DNA of 64,000 nucleotides from an uncultured Bdellovibrionales bacterium. Lineage in GTDB: Bacteria > Patescibacteriota > Minisyncoccia > Moranbacterales > UBA1568. The position numbers and the translations under genes are program-made. The stretch covers positions 21,444 through 85,443 of the forward strand of contig CAYQPQ010000001.1 of assembly GCA_964420045.1 (NCBI GenBank), in the 5' to 3' direction. Of this stretch, positions 5,016-60,715 are shown one piece after another. The notes under the pieces were generated by a model. That model ran no database searches and was not told the DNA's origin. It was given only the letters and a program-made list of their open reading frames with translations. The stretch's first letter is position 1. Every line of letters starts with the position of its first letter.

Positions 5016-5597
5016 CTAAAACTCCACTTTCACCGGTTGCTTCGCCGCTTCTTCGTCGAGTTCGAAGAATTCGCGTTTGGTGAACGTGAACATATTCGCG
5101 ATGATATTGGTCGGGACGGTTTCTATCTTGGTATTGTATTCCATAACGACGCCATTGTAGAAGCGGCGCGATGCCTGGATCTTGTTCTCCGTATCGGAGA
5201 GCTCGCGCTGAAGTTCGAGAAAGTTCTGATTCGCCTTGAGATCCGGATACGCTTCCGCAACCGCAAAGAGACTCTTCAAAGCGCCCGAGAGCACATTCTC
5301 CGCTTGTGCCTTCTCTGCCGTGCCACCCGCTTGCATCGCCTTGCTCCGCGCCTCGGTCACCTTCTCAAACACGCCCGACTCATGCGCGGCATAGCCCTTC
5401 ACAGTCGAAACGAGGTTCGGAATGAGATCATACCGCCGCTTCAACTGCACATCAATATCGCTCCACGCCTCCCCGGCGCGATTCTTGAACGTTACCAAAC
5501 CATTGTATGCTGCAATCCCCCACACCACGAGAACTAGCCCAATCCCCAAAAGAATATAGAGTGCCATAATGATACGAGCCGACACTTTCCGACGCAT
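5016..5597 (-). CDS. lemA: LemA family protein.
   Basis: N-terminal TM then AYNGLV...RYDLIPNLV...AHE...EAYPDLKAN, the LemA signature. It sits next to htpX, as it commonly does. Confidence 0.85.
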
Positions 5598-5881
5598 CCC
5601 GAAAAGCCCGCCTCAATTAAAGAAAAATCTCACTCCGACACCTTCACAGTAGCATGAAACCCCTCTCTTGAGAAGCTCCTGCCACAAACAGGATAAGCAG
5701 TGTATAATGGAAGAAGAATACGGAATTAAGAATCAAGAATGAGGCAATTATGCACAGAAGCACCAAACAAATGTTTTTTACCTACTCTTCCTCATCATTC
5801 CCACTTCTCTACGTTCTCTCATCTCCTCACCTTGTTCTCTATCTCTTCATTCCTCATTCTTAATTCCTTCTCTTTTTTCCT

Positions 5882-6322
5882 ATGATTCGCAATGAAATTA
5901 TGTTGTTTCTCGTTCCGATCCTTGTCGTCATAATCACCGAGGGCATCAAGTTTGCCAATTATTGCCGGAAGCACGGTTGGGACCTGCGCTATTCAATTGC
6001 ATACGGTCACATGCCGAGCGCACATACCGCCTTTGTGGCGTCACTGGTTACCACCGTCGCGCTTGTCGACGGTTTTACGCAGACATCTTTTGCCATCGCA
6101 CTCACGCTCGCCATCATCGTCATCTTCGACGCGCTTCGCCTGCGCGTCTATATGGGCGAGCACGCGCGCTACCTCAACAATCTCACCAAAGAACTCAAAC
6201 TCGACGAATCGAATTTCCCCCGACTCAAAGAACGCGTCGGCCACAAACCCGAGGAAGTCGCCGTCGGCGGTTTGGTCGGCATCTTGCTCACCCTCCTCTT
6301 CTTCGCTATTTGGGGAATATAG
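5882..6322 (+). CDS. Divergent PAP2 / DUF212 (YuiD-like) family membrane protein.
   Basis: The YGHMPSAHTAFVASL motif is characteristic of the acid phosphatase/vanadium haloperoxidase-related DUF212 family. The protein has multiple TM helices. Confidence 0.65.
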   Translation: MIRNEIMLFLVPILVVIITEGIKFANYCRKHGWDLRYSIAYGHMPSAHTAFVASLVTTVALVDGFTQTSFAIALTLAIIVIFDALRLRVYMGEHARYLNNLTKELKLDESNFPRLKERVGHKPEEVAVGGLVGILLTLLFFAIWGI

Positions 6323-15837: not shown

Positions 15838-16362
15838 ATGATTATTTTCATAAACGGGGCAAGCAATTCCGGAAAAAGCACCCTTGCTCACCTCCTTGCC
15901 CGGAAAATCCAGAGGTCACTCGTTATTGAGATTGATACACTCGTGAACGCTTCACGAAACTCTCATCCGATTCTTCGCGTTCAAGAGGCTGTGACATCCG
16001 GAGTGGCACTGATACACAAATATTCGTTGCAAGGTTATTCTGTTATCGTTCCATTCCCTCTTTCACCGGAACAGCACGCATTCTTTTGCAGGAATATGAA
16101 AACACTGGACAAAAACGTGTACTTCTTTACACTCTCCCCCTCGATGGAAACCATTCTCATCCCGCGCGGCAGTCGCCTCTTAACAGTCAAAGAGCAAGAC
16201 CGCATTCGACACTTCTATCGACATTTACTTCACCAACCATCATTCGGCATCATTATTGACAACAGCAATCAACTACCGCAAGAAACAGCAGACATAATGC
16301 TAAATCACATTCATCGCCTACAAAGCGATTCGTCCGTCGACTACCATTGGAGAATGGTTTGA
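15838..16362 (+). CDS. P-loop NTPase, possibly a small-molecule kinase.
   Basis: Walker A motif INGASNSGKST at the N-terminus. About 175 aa. It is divergent from the DKNYY gene. The His/Gln-rich 39 codons upstream in the track ORF were judged non-coding. Confidence 0.5.
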   Translation: MIIFINGASNSGKSTLAHLLARKIQRSLVIEIDTLVNASRNSHPILRVQEAVTSGVALIHKYSLQGYSVIVPFPLSPEQHAFFCRNMKTLDKNVYFFTLSPSMETILIPRGSRLLTVKEQDRIRHFYRHLLHQPSFGIIIDNSNQLPQETADIMLNHIHRLQSDSSVDYHWRMV

Positions 16363-56511: not shown

Positions 56512-58185
56512 ATGCCCGTCCGTACCGCTCTTTCCGCATTCATACAACTCGCTGCTCTTTTCGCACTCTCCGTTGGAGGCGTCTTTTTTGTTATTCCGAA
56601 AGTCGAAGCAAAAGAGTCTTCATGGAATGTCTTCATACACACCGTGCAAACGGCAGGTACGACGACTTCCGAAGACTTCGTTGAAATATACAACAGTGAA
56701 GACTGCGCGCTCGACCTCTCCGATTGGAAACTCCGGAAGCGAACCGCGAGCGGCAGCGAATCATCCGTCAAGGTGTTCGGCGATACGTCAAGTGTACTGC
56801 CACCGGGCGAGACGTTCCTCTGGGCAAACTCAACAAATAGTTTTGCCGATACAATCCGCGCCGCCGAGAAAAGCACCGCCACCCTCACGGACAACAATTC
56901 TCTCGCACTCATTGATGCGGACGACACCCTCATTGATTCTCTCTCCTGGGGCACAGTCGACAAACCGTTTCGAAGCAACGAACCAAACATTCGAAATCCC
57001 GACACGAACGAAATGATCGTCCGCTCATCCAAGACCGACACGCCGACAATCGAAAGAACCGTTCTGCCAAACGGGAAAGCATTTGATCACACATTCGCCG
57101 ATTTTTGCGGTGTTTCCAAAGACCGCGCAAACGATGCTCGCGTCGTTCTCTCCGAGATACTCGCCAATCCGACAGGAGACGAATCGACACGCGAATTTAT
57201 CGAACTCGAGAACAGAAGCGAAAGACAGGTTGATCTTTCCGGATGGAAACTTCGCGACGCCTCGAAAACCGGGAAGTACACCTTCCCCTCCGAGAGCGCA
57301 ATTGCGCCGCGCGCATTTCTCACACTCTTCCGATCCAATTTTGTCTTCGCCCTCAACAATAGCGCCGAGACCGTCACCCTCGAAGATGCGACCGGTGCCA
57401 CCGCCGACAGCGTCTCTTGGAACAAGACCCGGGAGGACATCTCCCTCGCTCGAGACGAAAGCCGCTGGCGAAATACCAAATTCCTGACACCCGACAAAGC
57501 CAATCGCTTCGGCAATGACCCGTCGGCGAAGACTTCCGTCCCAAAAACCGGCTTCGCCAAAATTCCAATAGATTTCACAGCAAGTATAAAAGATAAAGAC
57601 CGCGACAAAACTACCGTCGTCTGGGACTTCGGCGACGGACACAAGAGCTACAAGAAAGACACCGTTCACACCTTCGCCAAGACCGGACGATATACCGTGA
57701 AGCTCACCTACACCGACGGAGTTGTCGACAAGACAAAAACATTTCACATCAACATCAAGAAATACAGTGCGCCAAAAGTCCGCATCGTTTCCCTCATGCC
57801 AAATCCCCAAGGCACTGATACCGGTCGCGAATACCTCCTCATTCAGAACAAATCAAAGAAAGAAGTTGATCTCAAAGGATGGATCATCGCCACCAAGTCG
57901 AAATTCACTACCAAGCGTTTCGTCAATCACAAGATCACCGAGAGTCTCATCATAAAGCCCGGCGCCTCCGTCCGGCTCACGCGAGAGCACGCCGCCTTCA
58001 TCCTCGGCAATACACGGCAGTACCTGGAACTCCGCGACCCGCAAGGAAAAACCGTGCAGCACATCCACTACAAGCTCGACAAGAGCGCTCCCAACGATGC
58101 CGAGTTTTTCAAAATCCCCGACCATCCCTGGGAGTGGCGCCTCCCAACACCCACACCGCTTGACGCCACAGCGAGCGTGCAGTAG
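56512..58185 (+). CDS. Secreted lamin-tail-domain (LTD) protein with three LTDs and one PKD domain.
   Basis: Signal peptide. LTD motifs (DFVEIYNSEDCALDLSDWKL, EFIELENRSERQVDLSGWKL, EYLLIQNKSKKEVDLKGWII). PKD motif (WDFGDGHKS...HTF...GRYTVKLTYTDG). Confidence 0.75.
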   Translation: MPVRTALSAFIQLAALFALSVGGVFFVIPKVEAKESSWNVFIHTVQTAGTTTSEDFVEIYNSEDCALDLSDWKLRKRTASGSESSVKVFGDTSSVLPPGETFLWANSTNSFADTIRAAEKSTATLTDNNSLALIDADDTLIDSLSWGTVDKPFRSNEPNIRNPDTNEMIVRSSKTDTPTIERTVLPNGKAFDHTFADFCGVSKDRANDARVVLSEILANPTGDESTREFIELENRSERQVDLSGWKLRDASKTGKYTFPSESAIAPRAFLTLFRSNFVFALNNSAETVTLEDATGATADSVSWNKTREDISLARDESRWRNTKFLTPDKANRFGNDPSAKTSVPKTGFAKIPIDFTASIKDKDRDKTTVVWDFGDGHKSYKKDTVHTFAKTGRYTVKLTYTDGVVDKTKTFHINIKKYSAPKVRIVSLMPNPQGTDTGREYLLIQNKSKKEVDLKGWIIATKSKFTTKRFVNHKITESLIIKPGASVRLTREHAAFILGNTRQYLELRDPQGKTVQHIHYKLDKSAPNDAEFFKIPDHPWEWRLPTPTPLDATASVQ

Positions 58186-59149
58186 AAAGGAAGTAACGGA
58201 TCCTTAACAAATTCATTCTTTCAGGTGCGCACTTGCCTACGAACTCGCATCGATACAACCACACGAGGAGGTTCGTCCGATACCGTCGGCGGACATTCGA
58301 GGCAAGGCAAAAACCGGAAATAAGGGTTCGGAAACTCTTATCGAAGCTACACGTTTGGCCTCGATAAGACCCATCCACCGAGGACCGCTGGGTCTCCCAG
58401 CAAAGGTACCCTCCCATGAAGAAGATCAATTCCGGCAACACCTAAGGGCGAGTCAGAGCCATTCCGGGGGGGGTTTAGGCTCTTTATGAATTGGAAACTC
58501 CCCACACTGTAACTGTAAGGAGATTCTCAATGAAAAATTGCGGCCCAACCTGTGCACGACAGCGCAACTACTGCGCCACCAACACACCGTAAGGGGGTCT
58601 GCCGAATGACCGATAGCAGGCCGGTCCCCCGATGTCCTGCGCAACCCCAATACCAAAAGGAGACCTTCTATGGAGGTCAGCAACCTAAACTCTGAGCCGA
58701 TACACTACGGCTAAGCACTGAGCACCTCGGGGCGCAAGGTACTTGCGTCCCCCGCTGTAGTAAAAGGGGGTTGAAGCAATCCCAAGCTTCTGGCGAAGTC
58801 CCCCGTGCAGTTCCCGGGCGGCGCAGAATACGGGCAAAGTAGCGACACGTGAAATGCTCCTGCGTCCGTCCGACCAATTCATGGATTTCCGACAATGTTC
58901 GGAAATTCCAAACCAAACAGCGCAACGCGCTGAGCGGGGACAACACACTCCCTGCTATGGATTCCAGTTCTGGACGCACAAACTGATCATCTACCGCAAG
59001 GCAACAATTCGATCGGTTTCCAAGCTGGAATCCTATCTCTCGAGCTCCTTCACGTCTCAATGTTCGACGGCTTCTCCCGGACGTGAAGATCCTCTCCCAA
59101 AGCATTCATCCCTTGTCGCGGGTTCCGTAGGGTTTGCTTTGGGAGCTTT
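58186..59149. other. A 960-bp ORF-free, GC-rich, hairpin-dense stretch that is a candidate large structured non-coding RNA. Its family is unassigned.
   Basis: The only ORFs are Arg/Cys/Trp-rich junk in all six frames. There are many local GC hairpins, for example GGGGCGCAAG-GTAC-TTGCGTCCCC and CTTCACGTC...GACGTGAAG. The region is flanked by convergent genes. Confidence 0.4.
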
Positions 59150-59461
59150 TTATTTCTCCCCGCGAACAATATCCGCCAGCACGCTCATATCATCATCCGC
59201 CGCAAGGCGGTTCTTTTTTCCGTATCCGCAAACAAGGCAATGATGCCGCATTTGCCATTCCCCATGCTCGAGCCATGCTGAAACAGGCGCCATCAATCCG
59301 CCGCACGCCGCCGCCCGATCGCCGGGATAGACATCGACATGCCGGCTCCATAAACACTTCGGACAATGGTTAGTATAGCCATTTCCTTTCACGGAAGCAT
59401 GGCAATATCCGCACGAGAAATCCTCCGCGCGCTTTTGAAATCGTTGTGAAGACATACTCAT
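59150..59461 (-). CDS. RNHCP-domain protein.
   Basis: ...FSCGYCHA...GYTNHCPKCLWSRHVD...HCLVCGY... The Cys/His spacing matches the RNHCP zinc-ribbon-like domain. Confidence 0.6.
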   Translation of the reverse strand: MSMSSQRFQKRAEDFSCGYCHASVKGNGYTNHCPKCLWSRHVDVYPGDRAAACGGLMAPVSAWLEHGEWQMRHHCLVCGYGKKNRLAADDDMSVLADIVRGEK

Positions 59462-59596
59462 CGCTATACCAAGAATTCGACATTCCGTCAAATTATTCCT
59501 CGTGAAAAAGCGCGTGATACTTGACAAAGATGCTTATTTGGAGGATAATCGACAGATTGCTCGCATACCCTTTTATTCGACATAATATACCGCTTT

Positions 59597-60715
59597 ATGA
59601 GTCTTCCCTTCTCAATGCCAAAGATGCCAAAGCGCTCAATGATTGTTCGGACACTTGTGATTTTCCTCATCCTCCTTAGCGGCAGCATCTTCCTTTCAAA
59701 GAAAAGTACGTCAGAGCCGCAAGCAAGCCCGTCGGAAAACACCGAGACGCCTCCGATTCATGTCACCCTCAAAAAGGCTGGCGACCTCAAAACAACCGTC
59801 ACTACGAATCATCTTCCCGGCGTCATCGTTTCCGAAAACGAGACAAAAATTTTCGCTGCCGCTTCCGGCACGGTTGCCACAGCTCCATTTGAAGTTGGCG
59901 ACGCAGTTGCACTCGGAACAGTGCTTTTGCGCATCGATACGCCATTCATATCGGCAACTTCCAAAGACGGATTGCCGTCGGATACGATTCGACAGGCGGA
60001 AATCGCCGTTTCTCTTGCAAAGAAATCCTACAAAGATGCCGATCGGCTTGCCGAAAAAGAAAGTACCAAGAGTGTTGCCAATACACTCGCAAGAGACCTC
60101 GCCAAACTCCGCCTCGAGAGCGCCGAAATCGCACTCGAGAATGCTCGAAACAACGCGCTGGTCCGAGCTACGCTCTCCGGTGTCATCTCAAAGAAAAATG
60201 TCGCCATCGGAAGCACCGTCTCCCCCGGAACCGAGCTCTTCACGCTCGCTTCCGGTTCTGCGCCCTCGATACGCTTTCACGTTTCCAATACCATTCATCA
60301 GGGACTCTCTCGTGGCGAGAGCATAGCCGTGCATTCGGGAGAGATATCTTCCGAGGCGCGGATCACCTCCATTGGAGCCGTTGCCGATCCAAGCACGGGG
60401 AAATTTCCAGTTGAGGCGAAGCTTGCAAACAGCAACCTGCGCGCGGGAACCGTCGCGACGGTCAATCTGACATCGAAAGACACGCTCGCCGAAACACACA
60501 CATTTTCTCTTCCGCTCTCCGCCATTACCACCGGTCAAGACGGATCATTCTTCTTTGTTCAAGAATCCGGAAAAGCAAAGAAAGTGAACGCCACATCCAT
60601 CACGGTCTCAGGAGAAACCGGTATCGTATCGGCGGATATTTCGAATGATGCCGAGGTGATCGTCGGGAGCGGAAAAGCCCTCGAAGAAGGAGTGTCAATC
60701 GACACCGAGGCATAA
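59597..60715 (+). CDS. Efflux RND transporter periplasmic adaptor (membrane-fusion protein, HlyD family).
   Basis: N-terminal TM, coiled-coil hairpin region, then beta-barrel and MP domains. 372 aa. Confidence 0.7.
   Translation: MSLPFSMPKMPKRSMIVRTLVIFLILLSGSIFLSKKSTSEPQASPSENTETPPIHVTLKKAGDLKTTVTTNHLPGVIVSENETKIFAAASGTVATAPFEVGDAVALGTVLLRIDTPFISATSKDGLPSDTIRQAEIAVSLAKKSYKDADRLAEKESTKSVANTLARDLAKLRLESAEIALENARNNALVRATLSGVISKKNVAIGSTVSPGTELFTLASGSAPSIRFHVSNTIHQGLSRGESIAVHSGEISSEARITSIGAVADPSTGKFPVEAKLANSNLRAGTVATVNLTSKDTLAETHTFSLPLSAITTGQDGSFFFVQESGKAKKVNATSITVSGETGIVSADISNDAEVIVGSGKALEEGVSIDTEA

Follow-up and report, generated by a model that had tools for sequence, protein, structure and literature searches.

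The stretch of DNA analyzed here is a 64-kb segment (64,000 nucleotides; hereafter the window) of contig CAYQPQ010000001.1 from assembly GCA_964420045.1. Between two convergent genes lies a 964-nt gap (positions 58186-59149, exactly as delimited in a preliminary description of the sequence) that is non-coding and under nucleotide-level selection. Judging from its sequence and from those of its relatives, this gap very probably encodes a functional structured RNA on the + strand. The part common to all carriers of the element is a core of approximately 110 nt, formed by a helix (P1), an unpaired ACCAAUUC segment, and a second helix (H2), together with a terminator, and the version in the window adds hairpins H3 through H6 to give what we call domain D. 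The element is a new family in that no described family matches it, but orphan structured RNAs or small RNAs (sRNAs) confined to one clade are a familiar kind. The best explanation overall, which we hold at about even confidence, is a + strand, clade-restricted, modular non-coding RNA (ncRNA) that would act as a regulator of the 3'-end-derived sRNA type.

Relatives of the element were found via protein-database searches, using first a spurious 142-amino-acid (aa) open reading frame (ORF) and then the RNHCP protein encoded beside the gap. They comprise metagenome contigs and two complete genomes of Candidatus Moraniibacteriota (CP064989.1 and CP064974.1), to which lineage the window is thereby assigned, and the gene order HlyD-like, RNHCP, gap, LTD/PKD is preserved in all of them. 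The conservation in related genomes by which the preliminary description had proposed to judge the locus is thus present, as nine carrier lineages, with RNHCP proteins 63-81% identical to that of the window, keep the element in synteny. The flanking genes and the length of the gap in each lineage are given below.

56512-58185, + strand: LTD/PKD gene, encoding a 557-aa Lamin-tail-domain (LTD)/PKD protein
59150-59461, - strand: RNHCP gene, whose true start is the ATG at 59461 and whose end is at 59150
Gap in the window: 964 nt
Gap in L006: 1017 nt
Gap in L097: 872 nt
Gap in L008/L009: 965 nt
Gap in L012: 770 nt
Gap in L101: 531 nt
Gap in L098: 364 nt
Gap in L104: 347 nt
Gap in L013: 336 nt
Gap in L114: 188 nt, without the element

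Size differences among close relatives amount to a natural experiment. L008, L012, and L013 show 91-95% identity wherever their sequences correspond, yet they are distinguished by clean deletions of 195 nt and ~630 nt, and their 965-, 770-, and 336-nt versions delimit the essential core. The versions carried by distant relatives are 347-531 nt long.

The pattern of change in the gap is not that of a protein gene. Substitutions in domain D between the window and its relatives are flat with respect to codon phase (26/35/27), and the flanking genes show a third-position excess (15/14/34 for LTD and 13/14/46 for RNHCP). Indels of 1, 2, 4, 5, and 11 nt are common inside the gap and shift the frame. 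Furthermore, Pfam gave no match to the three long ORFs that overlap the gap (110 and 142 aa on the - strand and 129 aa on the + strand) or to its six frames with stops masked. We conclude that the gap is non-coding, because it lacks 3-base periodicity, carries frameshifting indels, and matches no Pfam domain in six frames. The “homologues” of the 142-aa ORF come solely from the same locus in relatives and, given the flat phases and the frameshifts, these proteins are translations of conserved non-coding sequence. Public assemblies contain “hypothetical proteins” of 86-200 aa called antisense to the element (P0001-P0005; 58677-59105 on the - strand of the window), the 142-aa ORF among them. These gene calls are spurious, since periodicity is absent and the frame shifts between relatives, and this wrong-strand annotation should be removed. 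The earlier characterization of the gap as ORF-free is literally incorrect, given these three overlapping ORFs, all of which are spurious. A highly degenerate pseudogene, which had been offered as one candidate, is excluded by the same flat phases, frameshifts, and missing Pfam match, and the six-frame search and codon-phase test recovered no remnant of a decayed protein gene.

The gap also folds much better than expected by chance. Relative to shuffled sequences, the z score of the whole gap is -5.7 for the + strand (-4.4 for the - strand), as compared with -0.1 and +0.6 for two other gene-free gaps of the window (15892-16317 and 5538-5951) and -1.4 for an adjacent 964 nt of coding DNA. The initial impression of a hairpin-dense, structured region is borne out by these values, and the signal is uneven along the gap: it is concentrated at 58812-59042 (z = -6.8, the strongest part), with scores of -2.8 for 58186-58480 and -1.3 for 58520-58815. 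All three hairpins that had been quoted are present (58729-58752, 59048-59088, and 58594-58632). The gaps of relatives folded in the window sense reach z scores of -7.3 to -10.3; two of them yielded -8.6 and -7.3 in the opposite sense, and the window sense is the stronger one.

Helices of the element are held by compensatory changes beyond what relatedness would produce, a result obtained from few independent lineages. A covariance model of the core (R1) recovers 11 of 11 family loci with scores of 45-128 bits, and it detects nothing credible in 80 RNHCP loci of other phyla or elsewhere in the window. In the core alignment (fitted to the model), 95% of cells are paired, six pairs have changed on both sides, and none of 500 shuffles reached the observed score. 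When the partners are slid, pairing in the core falls to 21-59%. Likewise, 92.5% of cells are paired in domain D versus 32-47% with slid partners. The double-sided changes, the shuffles, and the slid-partner controls thus provide, within the limit of the few lineages, the structural support that the preliminary description had sought from covariation. Regarding the strand, cells with G.U outnumber those with A.C (61 versus 23 in D and 19 versus 5 in the core), and G.U is possible only in the + sense. A U-tract follows the terminal stem on the + strand only, the - strand version having none. Together with the z scores, the G.U pairs and the U-tract therefore favor the + strand.

Domain D (58815-59156) is composed of the following parts.

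58815-58872, + strand: P1, a 7-bp helix CGGGCGG / CCGUCCG with an insert of 10-48 nt (44 nt in the window, with an inner helix)
58873-58882, + strand: unpaired junction ACCAAUUC(AU), the most conserved single-stranded segment
58883-58909, + strand: H2, a 10-11 bp hairpin GGAUUUCCGA / UCGGAAAUUCC (9-11 bp across carriers)
58910 onward, before H3, + strand: A/C-rich linker CAAACCAAAC
58918-58932, + strand: H3, a hairpin
58933-58956, + strand: H4, a hairpin with the invariant loop-side sequence GACAACACACUCCC
58959-59033, + strand: H5, a long-range helix GGAUUCCAG... / ...CUGGAAUCC that encloses inner helices and a hairpin with a GCAA tetraloop
59047-59088, + strand: H6, a hairpin CUUCACGUC / GACGUGAAG whose loop motif, CUCCCG, is invariant
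59092-59156, + strand: intrinsic terminator, an 11-bp G+C-rich stem (59094-59104 / 59135-59145) and then CUUUUUAUUU, which overlaps the RNHCP stop codon

P1 is present in all nine carriers (L012 retains five of the seven pairs), with 95% of cells paired and a compensatory change from C-G to U-A in L104, and it was recovered in independent minimum free energy (MFE) folds of relatives. The junction that follows, (G)ACCAAUUC, is identical or differs by one base in the nine carriers, including L101 and L104 where little else aligns, and it is predicted to be unpaired in every MFE fold. In H2, 5 of 11 pairs have changed on both sides, 96% of cells are paired, five different stem sequences occur among the lineages, and G.U pairs are found only in the + sense. 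Pairing in the outer helix of H5 reaches 98%, two of its base pairs having switched on both sides from A-U to G-C, and the inner helices of H5 are kept with shifts. H6 has a stem that is specific to each clade (UUCACGUC, CACAUUC, and UUUCACGC) and a loop, CUCCC(G), that is invariant.

The remainder of D is carried by some lineages only. The segment spanning the linker, H3, and H4 (58910-58956) is invariant or nearly so in lineages with a full D, L098 lacks H3 through H5, and in L101 and L104 a linker rich in A leads into a short hairpin of analogous kind. The last two lineages have in common with the others only P1, ACCAAUUC, H2, the short H3-like hairpin, and the terminator, and their peripheral helices are quite different. 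In L101 (5307-5837; 531 nt, z = -10.3), several perfect helices of 13-15 bp that are unrelated in sequence to those of the window surround the same small core. Its peripheral domains seem to have been replaced rather than merely trimmed.

The CUCCC of the H6 loop (59071-59078) recurs at the start of the terminator 5' arm (59092-59098), and both copies are complementary to GGGAG in the terminator 3' arm and to upstream AAGGAG motifs that resemble Shine-Dalgarno (SD) sequences. Two further pairings were considered and rejected. One, proposed by eye, would join the GAAU of the P1 insert to the AUUC of the junction in a pseudoknot; it is contradicted by L101 and L104, which have no insert, and by L097 and L008, which would break the pairing. 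The other, a 15-nt complementarity between LTD coding sequence (58122-58136) and H4, was attributed to chance, since L006 breaks it.

Conserved motifs lie at both ends of the putative transcript. At the 3' end, the terminator arms are 100% complementary in the window, and all nine carriers have a strong stem of differing sequence in the same place, followed by CUUU. For relatives whose sequence extends past the stop codon, the terminator tail continues as (C)UUUUUAUUU. A Rho-independent 3' terminator is thus conserved across relatives, as is characteristic of sRNAs and of 3'-end-derived sRNAs. At the 5' end, one additional feature precedes the gap.

58160-58188, + strand: promoter-like motif TTGACG - 17 nt - TAGAAA, in the last codons and stop codon of the LTD/PKD gene

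All 10 lineages have TTGAC[GA], exactly 17 variable nt, and TA[GA]AA[AG], and both the spacer and the C-terminal residues vary. TTGAC lies on a Leu/Ile codon and an Asp codon whose synonymous sites never change, though GAC accounts for only 39% of the Asp codons of this genome and CTT for 28% of its Leu codons. This sequence pattern suggests a promoter embedded in the coding end of LTD that would serve as the start signal for the RNA. A near-consensus promoter, TTGACA-17-GATAAT, is also found upstream of the HlyD-like gene (59521-59549), and the organism therefore uses canonical sigma-70-type promoters.

On the opposite strand, RNHCP lacks a terminator at the stop codon, and its mRNA may extend ~220 nt antisense into D, so that the convergent transcripts would overlap. 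The complement of H3 on the - strand (58932-58909) is followed by UUUGGUUUGG in a terminator-like arrangement, and a similar combination of a hairpin and a U-rich segment occurs in L101 and L104.

The element is restricted to one sub-clade of Candidatus Moraniibacteriota, a member of the Patescibacteria or Candidate Phyla Radiation (CPR). An exact-motif scan with ACAANACACTCCCNGCTATGG gave no matches among GTDB species genomes and one true relative (L016) in JGI metagenomes; another JGI match (L015) is a chance occurrence within a coding gene. Among 80 RNHCP loci from GTDB genomes of many phyla (≤59% identity), the element was absent by both nhmmer and R1, and an LTD gene is near RNHCP in only one of them (L031). 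Eight matches to the core motif on viral contigs are likewise due to chance, with none confirmed by R1. The window and the loci scanned contain no second copy of the element.

According to the explanation that we favor, transcription would start at TTGAC-17-TAGAAA within the end of the LTD/PKD gene, would arrive by read-through from that gene, or both. The covarying helices would then present near-invariant single strands, namely the ACCAAUUC that separates P1 from H2 and the loop of H6 with its CUCCC. These two segments could be recognition sites for another RNA or for a protein, and the RNA would end at the conserved intrinsic terminator that abuts the RNHCP stop codon. Recognition in the manner of an sRNA, via ACCAAUUC and/or the CUCCC loop, is a tentative part of this proposal that we consider possible and no better than that.

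Several observations weigh against this explanation. The -10-like hexamer does not end in T as the canonical one does, and the codons on which TTGAC lies specify a conserved Leu/Ile-Asp pair. Base-pairing sRNAs are typically much smaller and simpler than this element, with its 330-1000 nt and many helices, and the 64-kb window shows no enrichment of sequences complementary to the proposed seed, ACCAAUUCC. Few independent lineages underlie the covariation (there are two main clades in the full-D alignment), and the core alignment behind the 95% pairing and the 500-shuffle result was fitted to the model. In addition, the L114 locus (442-629) is syntenic and its RNHCP protein is 71% identical, yet the core is absent, so the element is not essential. 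This lineage has lost or replaced it; the L114 gap keeps the promoter-like motif and contains an ORF of 14 aa with an SD sequence and ATG (MKDPIFVKFGMNHA) as well as a hairpin with a U-run.

Upstream of D, the gap is divided into modules A through C (58186-58814), which bear on the alternatives discussed below.

58186-58605, + strand: module A, the variable 5' part, with islands of conservation and two mini-ORF starts (SD + ATG)
58416-58445, + strand: mini-ORF 1, 9 aa, SD + ATG
58530-58592, + strand: mini-ORF 2, 20 aa, SD + ATG
58606, + strand: start of mini-ORF 3, an SD + ATG site
58606-58645, + strand: block B, AUGACCGAUAGCAGGC(C)GGUCCCCCGAUGUCCUGCGCAAC, an island with almost no variation
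58646-58814, + strand: module C, with mini-ORF 4 and three conserved hairpins
58670-58714, + strand: mini-ORF 4, SD + ATG, MEVSNLNSEPIHYG, in module C
58729-58752, + strand: module C hairpin
Within ~58765-58805, + strand: module C nested hairpin

Between clades, module A can hardly be aligned: good alignments are limited to L006 and L097, L008 and L012 match it in islands only, and L013, L098, L101, and L104 do not have it. Block B is ~95% identical in the window, L006, L097, L008, and L012 while its flanks diverge, and a 1-nt indel in the block B of the window shifts the frame, which argues that conservation is at the nucleotide or RNA level. Module C is found in the window, L006, L097, and L008, is cleanly deleted in L012, and keeps its hairpin stems despite changes. 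In L097, a segment between two ...ATGAAGAAG units appears to have been deleted, fusing them. Modules A through C, which fill the 5' two-thirds of the gap, are thus lineage-specific accessories that diverge fast, are deleted in close relatives, and fold modestly better than chance.

A first alternative is that the element is a long structured 3' untranslated region (UTR) of the LTD/PKD mRNA, acting in cis as a stabilizer or terminator against 3' exonucleases with no function in trans. The arrangement is compatible with such a role, because the element has the orientation of LTD and lies directly behind it in every lineage, and because no convincing terminator separates the element from the LTD stop codon in the window, the sole strong one on the + strand being at the far end. 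However, a protective end needs neither 330-1000 nt nor near-invariant unpaired motifs and covarying internal helices. In front of the element is a promoter-like motif whose synonymous sites are frozen, and L013 has a hairpin and U-run right after the LTD stop codon, before P1. We therefore regard the UTR explanation as somewhat unlikely.

A second alternative starts from the terminator, which abuts the RNHCP stop codon in every carrier and whose U-tract overlaps that codon wherever the downstream sequence is known. The core might sense a ligand or factor and thereby control its own terminator, such that failed termination would extend transcription antisense through RNHCP and repress it. The lack of a downstream gene on the + strand fits this scheme, and the CUCCC of the H6 loop, which repeats the start of the terminator 5' arm, could compete for GGGAG in the 3' arm. 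Nevertheless, no conserved, mutually exclusive antiterminator helix has been demonstrated, no Rfam riboswitch matches, the distance and content between core and terminator vary greatly, and the RNHCP genes of 80 other genomes do without the element. A conditional terminator is therefore improbable.

The mini-ORFs raise the possibility of a dual-function RNA or a small-peptide operon, in which peptides of 7-30 aa would be made from the SD + ATG sites of modules A through C. All four sites (58416, 58530, 58606, and 58670) are correctly spaced and are kept in position among the full-length lineages, and AAGG is ~4-fold enriched in the gap (11 copies in 964 nt). In mini-ORF 4 (M[KE]VxNLN...), codons 5-7 (N-L-N) change only synonymously in four lineages (CTA/TTG/CTG and AAC/AAT), and L114, which is without the core, has its 14-aa SD + ATG ORF in a gap of 188 nt. 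Thus, translation of mini-ORFs is possible on the basis of these patterns. On the other hand, three of the four sites show no conservation of the peptide in sequence, length, or frame, modules A through C have no overall codon periodicity, and the short lineages L013, L098, and L104 keep the core without any such sites. A peptide-coding or dual-function locus is accordingly given a low probability.

Lower still is the probability that the entire 960 nt forms one large ornate RNA, similar to GOLLD, ROOL, or OLE, with all modules in a single architecture. Four lineages do carry full-length versions (872-1017 nt) with block B, the module C hairpins, and several GNRA-type loops, and the z score of the whole region is -5.7. 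However, close relatives have lost 195 nt (L012) or ~630 nt (L013) while D is kept at 91-95% identity, so that no architecture of >500 nt is conserved as a whole. Module A is almost unalignable between clades, modules B and C reach a z score of only -1.3, and no Rfam model of a large RNA matches even at E<10. The preliminary description had proposed a large structured ncRNA outside the known families, of GOLLD/ROOL/OLE class in size. Its conserved, non-coding, structured nature and its lack of a known family hold, whereas the size class is not supported, given lengths of 336-1017 nt and clean deletions.

A non-functional relic, in which the hairpins are left over from a decayed gene or dead mobile element, is extremely improbable even though close relatives differ in which modules they carry and one lineage is without the element, because the core is conserved where synonymous sites of neighboring genes are saturated, compensatory changes keep the helices (covariation that essentially refutes a relic for domain D), and neither a six-frame protein-domain remnant nor a second copy in the window or loci, nor terminal inverted or tandem repeats were found, which disfavors the mobile-element relic suggested earlier.

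The assignment to a new family rests on searches for known ones. Rfam 15 (4,227 families, including motifs of the Weinberg/Breaker type) gave one match in the whole window at the gathering score, a tRNA-Ser at 1073-1159, outside the gap. At E<10, positions 58000-59400 gave only a 14-bit snoRNA-like chance match inside the RNHCP gene, also outside the gap, and the loci of five relatives gave none at E<1. The element therefore belongs to no Rfam 15 family, including GOLLD, ROOL, OLE, HEARO, raiA, RNase P, tmRNA, SRP, 6S, group I and II introns, and riboswitches. ARAGORN found no tRNA or tmRNA in the gap, its only hit in the window being the same tRNA-Ser (1070-1159, - strand, CGA anticodon), which is the sole match of either program in the 64 kb. 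With respect to a group II intron, the isolated GUGCG at 58225 that had been noted as a hint is meaningless: the Rfam intron models are silent, and no reverse transcriptase or other Pfam domain is present in six frames. No tandem or interspaced repeats, terminal inverted repeats, or mobile-element signatures occur in 57500-59800, which leaves no CRISPR or TIGR array. A literature search retrieved no paper on an RNA beside RNHCP genes, nor any description of a comparable large RNA in CPR bacteria. Thus, the Rfam, ARAGORN, and Pfam negatives, including the Rfam search that had been recommended, agree with the original view that no known family is involved.

The composition of the locus was also compared with that of the window. 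In a greedy ORF map, the gap is the longest gene-free stretch by a wide margin, as originally claimed, followed by gaps of 426 nt (15892-16317) and 414 nt (5538-5951), neither of which has an Rfam match; the latter contains a long pyrimidine-rich tract. Even when the map wrongly accepts the 142-aa ORF, the remaining 58186-58676 ranks first. The claim of elevated GC content stands relative to the spacer between RNHCP and HlyD (0.39) and fails relative to the window (0.503), since the value of the gap, 0.537, is reached by 13% of equal-sized windows; the gap is GC-rich only by the standard of an ordinary intergenic spacer. There is no gene downstream of the element on the + strand that it could regulate.

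A more far-reaching reading combines several of these ideas. The element might represent a new class of modular, stably folded RNA of CPR/Patescibacteria in which the near-invariant core (P1-ACCAAUUC-H2) docks a cellular partner and lineages attach different large peripheral domains and mini-ORFs, up to 1 kb, and it might act as a conditional terminator that governs antisense transcription into the zinc-ribbon (RNHCP) gene. We consider this speculative and unlikely.

The reduced genomes of CPR/Patescibacteria have very little non-coding DNA, and a non-coding locus of 0.3-1 kb is therefore costly and likely to be specific in its role. To our knowledge, almost nothing has been reported on regulatory or structural RNAs of these organisms, and we know of no sRNA chaperone or sRNA targets in a CPR host. 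The scope of the element, one sub-clade of Candidatus Moraniibacteriota, is narrow, which makes it a solid candidate for follow-up and no surprise for the field.

Among known systems, the large RNAs GOLLD, ROOL, OLE, and HEARO resemble the full-length element in size, in their many hairpins, and in having a more variable 5' part and a more conserved 3' part. The element differs from them in that no covariance model matches, most of its length is dispensable, it has no association with phages or tRNA loci, and it occurs in one CPR sub-clade. Riboswitch-controlled antisense RNAs, such as the B12 riboswitch/AspocR of Listeria, likewise combine a structured RNA with a terminator, are directed toward a convergent gene from its 3' side, and have no downstream gene on their own strand, but the element has no ligand, recognized aptamer class, or demonstrated antiterminator. 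Orphan motifs of the Weinberg/Breaker type share with it a long intergenic region that is GC-rich compared to other spacers, covarying helices, and a narrow range, whereas none of the 4,227 families matches and its size varies unusually among close relatives. Finally, 3'-end-derived sRNAs with an internal promoter, such as DapZ and MicL of enterobacteria, are 50-300 nt long, whereas the putative RNA of the element is 330-1000 nt with at least seven helices. Like those sRNAs, it directly follows a protein gene and shares its orientation, has a candidate promoter in the last codons of that gene, displays conserved unpaired segments between helices, and ends in a strong Rho-independent terminator.

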